From positions 520 through 64,519 of the forward strand of contig JAFQTU010000016.1 in NCBI GenBank assembly GCA_017408905.1: a DNA stretch of 64,000 nucleotides. Direction: 5' to 3'. Source of the DNA: Mailhella sp. (GTDB lineage Bacteria > Desulfobacterota > Desulfovibrionia > Desulfovibrionales > Desulfovibrionaceae). Position numbers and translations under genes: made by a program. Shown one piece after another: positions 27,337 through 29,807 of this stretch. Under the pieces are notes generated by a model. That model was not told the DNA's origin. It made no database searches and saw only the letters and a program-made list of their open reading frames with translations. Every line of letters begins with the position of its first letter. Within the stretch, counting starts at the first letter, position 1.

Positions 27337-27365
27337 AAGAAGGGGCGCAAGGCCCCTTTCTTTTT
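27337..27365. terminator. Bidirectional terminator between alr and pyrD
   Basis: AAGAAGGGGC-GCAAG-GCCCCTTTCTTTTT between convergent genes. Confidence 0.75.
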
Positions 27366-27381: not shown

Positions 27382-28299
27382 CTAGCCCTGCAAAGAGCCC
27401 CGGAACGCGTCCAGATCGCTGACGCCGTATTCCTCGCACACGGCGGGCAGTTCACGCACGATGCGGAAAATGGCCTCAGGATCGCTGAAGCTGGCAGAGC
27501 CGACGGCCACGGCATGGGCGCCCACCAGCATGAATTCCAGCACGTCCTGCGCGGTACGGATGCCGCCCACGCCGATGACGGGGATATCCACGGCATGGGA
27601 TATCTGCCAGACACAGCGCAGGGCCAGCGGCTTCACGGCAGGGCCGGAAAGTCCGCCCGTGATACTGCCGAGCATGGCGCGGCGTTCCCGCACGTCCACG
27701 GCAAGCCCCTGCACCGTACCGATACAGGAAATGACATCGGCACCGGCGGCCTCCACGGAGCGGGCCACTTCCACGATATCCATGATCTGCGGCGAGAGCT
27801 TGGCGATGACGGGCTTGCTCCCGGCGGCCTTCTTCACGGCGCTGACGGCGCGGGCGGCCGTCACCGTGTTCTGGTTGAAGCGCTGGCCGGAGCGGTTGTC
27901 GTTGCGGCAGGAAAGGTTGACTTCCAGCGCGGCGATGCCGGGTTCGGCTGCGAGTATCCCCGCCAGTTCGCTGAAGTCTTCCACGAAATTCGCGTTGAGA
28001 TTGGGGATGATGGGCACATCCTGCCACGGGAGCTGGGGCAGGACGTGGCGGACGAAATGCTCCACGCCGTCGTTCTGCGTACCGATGGAGGTGAGCAGGC
28101 CCGAAGGGGTCTCGGCCACGCGCGGCATGGGGGAGCCCATGCAGGGGCGGAGCGTGAGACCGTTGGTTATGATGCCGCCAAGCTGGGTGATATCGCCGTA
28201 GGGGCTGTATTCAAGGCCGCTGCCGAAAGTTCCGGCGGCGCTCATGATGGGATTCTTCAGCTCAAGCAGGCCGGGAACGAGAGTAGCGCGAAGATCCAT
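27382..28299 (-). CDS. pyrD: Dihydroorotate dehydrogenase class 1B catalytic subunit-like protein with atypical active site
   Basis: LKNPIMSAAGTFG, PRVAETPSG, EVNLSC, KLSP, GGLSGPAVKP; adjacent to pyrK. Several invariant residues are substituted. Confidence 0.85.
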   Translation of the reverse strand: MDLRATLVPGLLELKNPIMSAAGTFGSGLEYSPYGDITQLGGIITNGLTLRPCMGSPMPRVAETPSGLLTSIGTQNDGVEHFVRHVLPQLPWQDVPIIPNLNANFVEDFSELAGILAAEPGIAALEVNLSCRNDNRSGQRFNQNTVTAARAVSAVKKAAGSKPVIAKLSPQIMDIVEVARSVEAAGADVISCIGTVQGLAVDVRERRAMLGSITGGLSGPAVKPLALRCVWQISHAVDIPVIGVGGIRTAQDVLEFMLVGAHAVAVGSASFSDPEAIFRIVRELPAVCEEYGVSDLDAFRGSLQG

Positions 28300-29144
28300 C
28301 AGTCCCTCCTTTCCGAAAGAGAAGCGTCAAGGTCCAGTTCCTTGGCCCAGAACACCGGCCCGCTGGTGCAGGTCTGCACGGGGAGCCCCGCCTTCACGGG
28401 GTCGGGCCAGTGCTTCGAGGTCACGGCGGAACAGCCGAGGCAGGCCCCGGTGCCGCAGCTCATGCGCTCTTCAAGAAGGAGCTGGGTGGGCAGGTCTATC
28501 TCGTTGGCGAAGCGCCACACCTTTTTCAGGAAGGGCATAGGGCCGCAGGCAAGGCATATGCCGCCCCTCTCCTTGTATTCCGTCATGCGAAGGCGCGCGA
28601 CCCTGTGGAATTCTTCCAGCTCCTCGGGGGTACGGTCATGCAGGCTCTCCACTTCGATGCGGGCGGCCATAGCATCCGTGGGATAGTTGCTGCTAGGCAG
28701 GGAATGGCCGAACAGCATGGAAAGGCTGGAAGGGTCGGGGTGCATATCCGCGTAGCCCGCGAAGGGGGCTATGCCCACGCCCCGGGCAAGGAGGAGGGTA
28801 GGCGTGTCCGGCCTCATGTCGAAGCCCGTACCGAGCGGCCCCCAGACGATGACCTTGTCCCCGCTTTTCAGGCGGGAGAAGCGATCGGTGGCAGAGCCTA
28901 CCACGCGGATGAACAGCACAAGGCTCTGCGAAGTCACACGGCAGATGGACATGGGGCGAGCCCACACGCATTCTTCCCCCGACAGCGGCCTCAGCATGAT
29001 GAACTGCCCGGGCTGCCAGCTCTTCCATTCCGGCCTTTCCAGAGTGAGGGCATAGAAGCGGCGCTGGCCGTCAGGCCAGAATACCGGCTGCCCGAAGGGG
29101 ACGTTGTCCGTCACGGTGAGCTCGGCTCGTATGGGAGTTATCAT
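28299..29144 (-). CDS. pyrK: Dihydroorotate dehydrogenase electron transfer subunit
   Basis: PGQFIML, RPMSI, GPLG, CGP and the 2Fe-2S motif ERMSCGTGACLGC...C.SGPVF. Confidence 0.88.
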   Translation of the reverse strand: MITPIRAELTVTDNVPFGQPVFWPDGQRRFYALTLERPEWKSWQPGQFIMLRPLSGEECVWARPMSICRVTSQSLVLFIRVVGSATDRFSRLKSGDKVIVWGPLGTGFDMRPDTPTLLLARGVGIAPFAGYADMHPDPSSLSMLFGHSLPSSNYPTDAMAARIEVESLHDRTPEELEEFHRVARLRMTEYKERGGICLACGPMPFLKKVWRFANEIDLPTQLLLEERMSCGTGACLGCSAVTSKHWPDPVKAGLPVQTCTSGPVFWAKELDLDASLSERRD

Positions 29145-29237
29145 AAGGCCTCCGCGGCTTTTTTCTTTTCTTTGTGCGCCTCAAAACATTTCAGGTCAAG
29201 TGAACGGCGGCACAATTCATCGAAAGTTAACAATTTT

Positions 29238-29807
29238 TCAGAAGACTCCATGCTCGTGCAGGATGTTCACGCCGATGCCGATGAGCACGAAAGCCCCCAG
29301 CAGGGCTGCCTTGCCCCCCAGCAGTTCCGAACGCCCCAGAGCCGTTCCCAGCCTGATGCCCAGCGCCGTGAGCGCCGCGCAGACAAGGCCGATGACGGCA
29401 GACGGCATCCATACGGAAATGCCCGCCATGGAAAAGGAAAGCCCCACGGCCAGCGCGTCGATGCTGGTGGCCACGGCAAGGAGCAGGAGCGTGACGCCCC
29501 GCGAAGGGTCGCCGGAGCATTCCCCTTCCTCCTCGCAGAAAAAGGCCTCGCGCAGCATATTCAGGCCCACGGCAAGGAGCAGGGCAAAGGCTATCCAGTG
29601 ATCCCACGCCTCGATCCAGCTCCGCACGGAAAGCCCCAGCGCCCAGCCGATGACGGGCATGGCGAACTGGAAGAAGCCGAAGGCGAAGGACATACGCACA
29701 TAATGGCCGATATCCACACGCCCCAGAGAGACGGAGGACGACAGCGCCACAGCGAAGGCATCCATAGCCAGAGCAAGGGCCACGGCAAAAGAGGAAAGCA
29801 GGGACAT
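29238..29807 (-). CDS. mntP: Manganese efflux pump MntP
   Basis: LALAMDAFAV, FGFFQFAMP, ATSIDALAVG. Confidence 0.92.
   Translation of the reverse strand: MSLLSSFAVALALAMDAFAVALSSSVSLGRVDIGHYVRMSFAFGFFQFAMPVIGWALGLSVRSWIEAWDHWIAFALLLAVGLNMLREAFFCEEEGECSGDPSRGVTLLLLAVATSIDALAVGLSFSMAGISVWMPSAVIGLVCAALTALGIRLGTALGRSELLGGKAALLGAFVLIGIGVNILHEHGVF

Follow-up and report, generated by a model that had tools for sequence, protein, structure and literature searches.

A dihydroorotate dehydrogenase-like gene pair with a remodelled substrate pocket, kept in addition to a foreign pyr block in one Mailhella subclade

Introduction

The stretch of DNA considered here (the window) is 64,000 nucleotides long and comes from contig JAFQTU010000016.1 of Mailhella sp. 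(assembly GCA_017408905.1), of the family Desulfovibrionaceae. Two minus-strand open reading frames fill the interval from 27382 to 29144 and resemble pyrK and pyrD, the genes for the two subunits of class 1B dihydroorotate dehydrogenase (DHODB; the enzyme in general is abbreviated DHOD or, in part of the literature, DHODH). In this pair the substrate pocket of the PyrD-like subunit has been rebuilt, and a second, canonical set of pyr genes is found elsewhere in the genome. Window coordinates are used throughout, and residue equivalents follow the numbering of the Lactococcus lactis DHODB (1ep1/5ue9).

The gene pair and its predicted fold

The two genes meet in a one-base TGATG overlap (Table 1). 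The PyrD-like protein, P0001, scores 210.5 bits against the Pfam family DHO_dh (PF01180), 280.6 against TIGR01037 (cut-off 270) and 326.8 against NF005574 (cut-off 269). With the last of these models, the canonical sister copy and the foreign copy described below reach 398.4 and 437.9 bits, respectively, so that P0001 lies 70-110 bits under both. The AlphaFold2 model of P0001 (pLDDT 89.6, pTM 0.90) matches the PyrD subunit of L. lactis DHODB in Foldseek (5ksw, 5ue9 and 1ep1; TM 0.93, rmsd 1.6 Å), which confirms a DHOD-type FMN TIM-barrel fold. Confidence drops in the pocket elements, residues 51-80, 131-140 and 191-220.

Table 1. Features of the pyrK-pyrD-like pair and its borders
Feature	Position	Strand	Remarks
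pyrK-like electron-transfer subunit (P0002, 281 aa)	28299..29144	minus	Resident Desulfovibrionales type; FNR-like FAD module and C-terminal 2Fe-2S domain
pyrD-like FMN subunit (P0001, 305 aa)	27382..28299	minus	DHODB-type TIM barrel; remodelled substrate pocket
AAC, Asn46 for Lys48	28162..28164	minus	Lys in 136/136 canonical; variants Asn 19, His 1 of 20
TCC, Ser56 for Asn58 (GNP loop)	28132..28134	minus	Asn in 95% of canonical; Ala/Ser in 20/20 variants
ACC, Thr70 for orotate-binding Asn72	28090..28092	minus	Asn in 100% of canonical; variants Ser/Thr/Asn 15/2/3
GGT, Gly194 for orotate-binding Asn197 (INT motif)	27718..27720	minus	Asn in 136/136 canonical; Gly in 20/20 variants
Active-site loop C131-R132-N133-D134-N135-R136	27892..27909	minus	Cys kept; Pro to Arg, Val to Asp, new conserved Arg136
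PyrK dinucleotide-binding motif R121-G-V-G-I-A-P127	28764..28784	minus	Canonical G-G-I-G-I-A-P; GxGxxP core kept
PyrK 2Fe-2S ligand region, Cys230-Cys259	28368..28457	minus	Includes Mailhella-type insertion SKHWPDPVKAGLP
Shine-Dalgarno GGAGG	29149..29153	minus	4 nt 5' of the pyrK ATG; read from sequence
Bidirectional hairpin terminator	27339..27359	both	Between the convergent pyrD-like gene and alr

Substitutions in the PyrD substrate pocket

Aligned residue by residue to L. lactis DHODB, the PyrD-like protein reads ITNG for VKA (K48N), LLTSIG for MLNAIG (N72T), SCRN for SCPN (P136R, adjoining the retained catalytic Cys) and CIGT for MINT (N197G, with the codon GGT), as well as KLSPQ for KLSPN and GSAS for GTAN. 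A preliminary description of the window, made from the sequence alone, had listed these six changes together with the preserved catalytic Cys and KLSP Lys, and the alignment bears out every one of them. Absent from that list were N58S, in the near-universal GNP loop, and further newly fixed residues, namely R55C, L76T, V138D and a new Arg at window residue 136. The replaced residues had been called invariant, which fits K48, N72, P136 and N197 (93-100% in canonical class 1B enzymes) and does not fit the Asn of KLSPN and of GTAN, both of which are variable.

Conservation was assessed on 150 sequences, each of which represents one 50%-identity cluster in a collection of 1.8 billion proteins. Lys48 is present in 140 of these representatives, Asn72 also in 140, Pro136 in 142 and Asn197 in 143, and the same combination of substitutions occurs in the Mailhella cluster only. 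The Asn of KLSPN and that of GxAN are found in 107/150 and 70/150, respectively; because these two positions vary, the changes from KLSPN to Q and from GTAN to GSAS carry little weight.

The part of the active site that is retained includes the catalytic Cys (Cys131; Cys135 in L. lactis), the KLSP Lys and the FMN phosphate/ribityl motifs GGLSG and GVGG. Two of the four orotate-binding Asn are kept (Asn132 and Asn137) and two are replaced (Asn72 by Thr and Asn197 by Gly). Cys131, Asn132 and Asn137 are invariant across the clade of remodelled (variant) copies, with the Cys present in 20/20 sequences.

A comparison of 136 canonical with 20 variant PyrD sequences shows how narrow the loss is. Only six sites that are at least 85% conserved in the canonical set have been lost in the variants: K48 (to N), N58 (to A/S), N72 (to S/T), P136 (to R/H), N197 (to G) and I225 (to V). 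At 23 sites, the variant clade carries, at 90% or more, a residue that is present in fewer than 10% of canonical enzymes. These include S27 (Tyr), N46, C53 (Arg55), T74 (Leu76), P99, N102, D134 (Val138), R136, Q139, M173 (Thr176) and G194 (canonical residues in brackets), and several of the 23 fall in loops that form the orotate pocket or in active-site motifs. The loop around the catalytic Cys has been rebuilt to the clade consensus SC(R/H)ND(N/H)R(S/G)GQ, in which D134 (19/20) and R136 (20/20) are fixed; both are rare among canonical enzymes.

Among the lost residues, Lys48 contacts both FMN and the orotate carboxylate and stabilises reduced FMN. In class 1A DHODH, the equivalents of Lys48, Asn72 and Asn197 (Lys43, Asn67 and Asn194) form direct hydrogen bonds to orotate, at its carboxylate, N1/O2 and N3/O4 (PMC4427443), and a Lys-to-Ala mutant of a class 1A enzyme fails to complement a ura1 deletion (PMC10395836). 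Since Lys48, Asn72 and Asn197 have been lost together, normal turnover of dihydroorotate by the remodelled pair seems unlikely from its residues.

The PyrK-like subunit

The partner subunit has its best PDB sequence match in PyrK of L. lactis (1ep1_B) and matches the DHODB Fe-S domain family PF10418 with 42.7 bits. The FAD motifs RPMS and GPLG are present, as are all four 2Fe-2S cysteines (C230, C235, C238 and C259). The preliminary description had pointed out that the NAD-binding AGGIG reads ARGVG next to intact 2Fe-2S cysteines; both observations hold, but the change does not destroy the dinucleotide-binding core, as the FNR-type GxGxxP (G122-V-G124-I-A-P127) is complete. Position 121 is Gly in 16/16 canonical Desulfovibrionales-type and 15/15 foreign PyrK sequences, and Arg (18), Tyr (1) or His (1) in the 20 variants. 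G121R is one of the changes particular to the variant clade, together with Q80R, W55D and F65L/M.

The NCBIfam PyrK models NF000796-NF000799 give the PyrK-like protein 105.8 bits at best, against a cut-off of 219. Because the canonical PyrK of one-copy Mailhella also falls well below that cut-off (121.7 vs 219), these models do not cover PyrK of the Desulfovibrionales type, for which 106-122 bits stand against cut-offs of 219 or more. Mailhella PyrK in general carries an insertion of about 8 residues (the HWPDPVKAGLP region) within the 2Fe-2S domain.

A second pyr set of foreign origin

The preliminary description had offered impaired de novo pyrimidine synthesis as one consequence of the substitutions, and had proposed a search for a canonical pyrD/pyrK and the remaining pyr genes. 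Run on the whole genome, this search returned a second DHO_dh gene, on contig C17, with 297.8 bits vs 210.2 for the window copy. It lies in a block with the gene order pyrC-pyrK-pyrD-pyrF (C17:46053-50185, locus L063:3051-7186; L001), and pyrE and pyrB are located on contig C77. The motifs of the C17 PyrD are intact (FKGTT, MINAIG, SCPN, KLSPN, LINT and GAAN), and the C17 PyrK reads GGGVG. De novo pyrimidine synthesis is, by gene content, complete in this genome, and therefore the changes in the window pair do not mean an impaired pathway; that proposal is refuted. With the canonical C17 block present, the window pair is not the genome's pathway enzyme for de novo synthesis of uridine monophosphate.

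Of the two copies, it is the one in the window that belongs to the lineage. The window PyrD is the orthologue of the single copy of the order, with 51-56% identity outside the genus and the same long type of PyrK. The C17 PyrD (PyrD2) shares about 43% identity with the resident copy and 48-52% with other Desulfovibrionales PyrD, and its partner (PyrK2) is of a short, 245-aa type with 26-31% identity to resident-type PyrK. Against L. lactis DHODB, the C17 PyrD scores 372-385 bits and the window PyrD 257-269. The genome retains one pyrF and one pyrC. Identity of pyrF is 89% inside the clade of two-copy genomes and 39-42% to pyrF of one-copy Mailhella; for pyrC the corresponding values are 73% and 34-35%. 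The C17 pyrC-pyrK-pyrD-pyrF block is thus of foreign origin; its arrival was followed by the loss of the resident pyrC and pyrF, and the resident pyrKD was kept.

The transfer is, on compositional and distributional grounds, an old one, since the GC content of the block has been ameliorated (0.62-0.65 vs 0.61 for the genome) and the block is common to the whole subclade. The gene order of the block is Bacillota-like and its PyrK is short, and in the tree it groups with L. lactis DHODB, a grouping that joins long branches. The best 120 database matches to the block were all from Mailhella, and no donor could be named.

Two simpler origins of the second copy were rejected. A recent duplication within the genome does not agree with copies that share only 43% (PyrD) and about 27% (PyrK) identity, and assembly contamination does not agree with a two-locus arrangement that repeats in 21 genomes, including the single-contig, 3.2 Mb genome G008.

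Two further observations concern pyr loci of this kind. A long, near-perfect hairpin of about 80 nt (L063:5847-5929; C17:48846-48928) lies within the 530 nt that separate pyrC from the foreign pyrK. It draws spurious matches to miRNA-precursor models on both strands and may represent a terminator, attenuator or repeat element. In G027 (locus L034), a 1.6 Mb genome from another family of the same order, the sole PyrD clusters with the foreign Mailhella copies and L. lactis DHODB and apart from the Desulfovibrionales type; here the resident copy may have been replaced independently, without being kept.

Distribution, phylogeny and selection

Altogether, 28 Mailhella genomes were covered. All 21 that have two copies carry the remodelled resident PyrD, and all six other one-copy genomes are canonical; the sole exception is an 84%-complete genome in which the remodelled copy alone was found. 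In a motif table of 38 genomes, those with one PyrD are canonical (15 outside the genus, from other families of the order, and 5 within it), aside from the same exception, with the motifs VVKGLS, MLNAxG, SCPN, KLSPN and INT in PyrD and AGGxG in PyrK, and those with two PyrD all have the remodelled resident copy. The rule that links copy number to sequence type was then used to predict the state of three Mailhella genomes that came to light afterwards, and it held: two are two-copy and variant and one is one-copy and canonical. The two former have N46, S70, T74, C53, D134, R136 and G194 in PyrD, and R121 and R80 in PyrK. Genomes from other families of the order have one DHODB PyrD each, and a survey of 147 genomes, which cover 71 other genera of the family, found no second PyrD copy. 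The remodelled pair is confined to one Mailhella subclade.

In the maximum-likelihood tree, the remodelled copies form a single clade (support 100/100) on a stem of 0.67 substitutions/site. This clade is nested among the resident Mailhella PyrD and adjoins the canonical one-copy sister. Relative rates measured against the outgroup G007 agree with a burst of change in both subunits: for PyrD, the canonical sister is 77.5% identical to the outgroup and the variants 59-60%; for PyrK, the values are 72.6% and 62-63%.

The burst has been followed by constraint. In the variant clade, close pairs compared by the Nei-Gojobori method have a ratio of nonsynonymous to synonymous substitution rates (dN/dS) of 0.04-0.15 in PyrD and 0.03-0.09 in PyrK. 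Canonical one-copy pairs cover about the same range (0.07-0.10), as does the foreign copy (0.04-0.18). Reading frames are intact in 22/22 genomes that carry the remodelled copy. The remodelled pyrKD has been under purifying selection since the substitution burst. It occurs in Mailhella with genomes of 1.4-3.5 Mb and follows the arrival of the foreign block, not genome reduction. The preliminary description had joined the pair to an odd PyrG in a wider rewiring of pyrimidine metabolism; because the remodelling spans this range of genome sizes and tracks the foreign block, the pattern looks independent of PyrG.

Probable function and alternative explanations

We consider it probable that the pair is a DHODB neofunctionalised after xenologous displacement, that is, an FMN/FAD/2Fe-2S oxidoreductase that would act on a substrate other than dihydroorotate. 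The altered specificity, or new flavo-Fe-S oxidoreductase, suggested in the preliminary description gains indirect support from the changed orotate and FMN ligands, their clade-wide fixation and purifying selection. In our judgement there is an even chance that the pair is an enzyme not described before. Its substrate might then be a cyclic amide other than dihydroorotate, or an unsaturated acid, present in the gut, and it would have arisen in one Mailhella subclade once horizontally acquired genes had taken over the old job.

The analysis shows the following course of events. An ancestor of one Mailhella subclade gained the foreign pyrC-pyrK-pyrD-pyrF block, after which the resident pyrC and pyrF were lost. 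The vertically inherited class 1B pyrK-pyrD was kept, and a burst of substitutions rebuilt its substrate pocket. PyrD gave up the carboxylate-binding, FMN-stabilising Lys along with two of the four Asn by which the pyrimidine ring is held, and newly fixed Cys53, Thr74, Asp134, Arg136 and Met173; in PyrK an Arg replaced the Gly ahead of the dinucleotide-binding GxG. Both genes have since then stayed under purifying selection. We infer that the cofactors are retained and that activity on dihydroorotate has been lost. The chemistry would presumably be that of DHODB, with hydride passing to or from N5 of FMN, a proton passing via the retained Cys131, and electrons travelling via the Fe-S cluster to the FAD that the PyrK-like subunit carries. 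The substrate would not be dihydroorotate, and the nucleotide or partner at the FAD site is perhaps altered as well, which is hinted at by the position of G121R next to the dinucleotide site.

Several points weigh against this interpretation. P0001 clears the NCBIfam equivalog cut-off for DHOD (326.8 vs 269), and the catalytic Cys and two orotate-binding Asn are still in place. The conserved Arg136 might conceivably replace the lost Lys and leave residual activity on dihydroorotate, and the loss of an FMN-stabilising Lys could weaken flavin chemistry generally. Pocket sites also vary inside the clade (72, S/T/N; 136, R/H/C/P; 171, Q/E/H/L/R; 195, T/K/M/P/S), which in part resembles relaxed constraint more than the tuning of a new pocket. 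Finally, the neighbouring genes mntP, rnj, alr and lptD yield no functional clue, and no candidate substrate surfaced.

Some of these points lead to the view that the pair is a second dihydroorotate dehydrogenase isozyme, one that binds orotate in an unusual way, with Arg136 or Arg/His132 in place of Lys48, and that maybe passes electrons to another acceptor through the altered PyrK. Besides the scores above the NF005574 and TIGR01037 cut-offs, the preserved catalytic Cys, Asn132, Asn137 and FMN-binding Lys of KLSP would be expected of such an isozyme; so would the retention of a PyrK partner and an Arg136 fixed in 20/20 variants on the very loop of the catalytic Cys. However, K48, N72 and N197, each conserved in 100% of the 136 canonical sequences, have been lost jointly, and mutation of the Lys alone is enough to end complementation in a class 1A enzyme (PMC10395836). 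Moreover, Arg/His132 is not found in every member of the clade, and the change is limited to genomes that also have a canonical DHODB, which fits release from the original job. We regard an isozyme as unlikely.

Somewhat less credible still is that the substrate site has been dismantled and that the complex now works as an electron-transfer module or diaphorase, the old orotate pocket having no specific role. NAD(P)H or another donor would then feed FAD, the 2Fe-2S cluster and FMN in turn, and FMN would deliver the electrons either to a small acceptor or to a partner protein. The variation of several pocket positions inside the clade would suit such relaxed, not new, constraint; the cofactor motifs and both subunits are strongly conserved, and PyrK-like modules serve as electron-transfer subunits elsewhere, for example NfnA (PMC8097209). 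On the other hand, an unused pocket is hard to square with a loop that has gained the strictly conserved D134, R136 and Q139, nor would it explain why no member of the clade has changed the catalytic Cys, Asn132 or Asn137, and no partner gene is seen near the locus.

It is very improbable that the pair is left over from the displaced native enzyme and is decaying into a pseudogene: the loss of the resident pyrC and pyrF after the foreign block came and the absence of key catalytic residues might suggest it, but the frames are intact in all 22 genomes, dN/dS (0.03-0.15) is as low as in the essential canonical copies across divergences with dS >1, the 23 clade-specific residues are conserved and the predicted fold is confident.

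Comparison with known systems

The closest characterised system is the class 1B DHODB of L. lactis (1EP1/1EP2/5UE9). In both systems the two genes lie next to each other and overlap. One encodes a TIM-barrel subunit for FMN (44% identity) with the catalytic Cys of the SCxN loop, the KLSP Lys and the GGLSG and GxGG motifs, and the other a partner that combines an FNR-like FAD module with a 2Fe-2S domain of four Cys. The L. lactis enzyme differs in the loop, which is SCPNVKHGGQ there and SCRNDNRSGQ in the Mailhella pair, and in PyrK, which in Mailhella is 281 aa long, has Arg for the first Gly of GGGIG and carries the insertion in the Fe-S domain. The PyrK-PyrD of one-copy Mailhella (such as G017 and G098) are direct orthologues by the tree, with 62-65% identity and the same PyrK architecture, length and Fe-S-domain insertion; in contrast to the remodelled pair, they keep all canonical residues (VVKGLS, MLNAVG, SCPN, KLSPN and CINT; AGGIG in PyrK) and are the only DHOD of their genome.

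A functional parallel is provided by fungi, in which genes described as "class 1A DHODH-like" proved to encode dihydrouracil oxidases (PMC10395836). Like the Mailhella pair, these are paralogues that stand beside a true DHODH, keep the catalytic Cys and FMN, and were annotated by homology as DHODH (PMC10395836). Their action on another substrate is established; they are, however, class 1A, single-subunit, oxygen-dependent and eukaryotic, and their active site is highly conserved (PMC10395836), whereas three ligand residues are replaced in the Mailhella pair. The NAD-dependent dihydropyrimidine dehydrogenase PreA/PreT and the DHOD-like protein PRK07565 belong to the same FMN-barrel superfamily, with Fe-S/flavin partners and related substrates, but they are set apart by another partner subunit and by family models whose cut-offs P0001 misses by far (NF006183, 104 bits vs a cut-off of 335; NF005741, 69 vs 303). 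A search of the literature found nothing on pyrimidine genes of Mailhella or on DHODB paralogues of such a kind.

Among the DHODB-like clusters, six (P0311, P0336, P0343, P0351, P0375 and P0382) are without Lys48, and five of the six are also without the catalytic Cys. From their sequences, they look like more uncharacterised paralogue families annotated by homology.

Significance

The history of this locus amounts to a natural experiment: a foreign block displaced native genes, two of which were deleted, and a third unit was kept with a rebuilt active site and has long been under purifying selection. In this genus of gut sulfate reducers, common yet little studied, the remodelled pair is a strong candidate as a flavoenzyme with a new activity. 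Every public copy of the remodelled PyrD is named dihydroorotate dehydrogenase and clears the curated equivalog cut-off, and metabolic reconstructions will tally two DHODs where probably one exists. The clade also offers a natural set of variants for the specificity of the DHOD pocket, as its changes hit residues that have been mutagenised (Lys48 and the Asn ligands).

Surroundings of the gene pair

Upstream of pyrK in the window are mntP and the gene for RNase J, and downstream of the pair alr (the alanine racemase gene), which shares the hairpin terminator with the pyrD-like gene, is followed by lptD. The mntP gene (29238-29807) is on the same strand as pyrK, 94 nt upstream, across the spacer 29145-29237. 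The only sigma-70-like site lies upstream of mntP (29864-29837), which suggests that mntP, pyrK and pyrD may be co-transcribed. An Rfam scan near both pyr loci matched no family, including PyrR attenuators and a Mn riboswitch before mntP. Members of the variant clade have the gene order rnj-(mntP)-pyrK-pyrD-alr-lptD in common, and in canonical Mailhella pyrKD is found at another site, amid unrelated genes for a LysO exporter, a topoisomerase, an adenine deaminase and an amidohydrolase.

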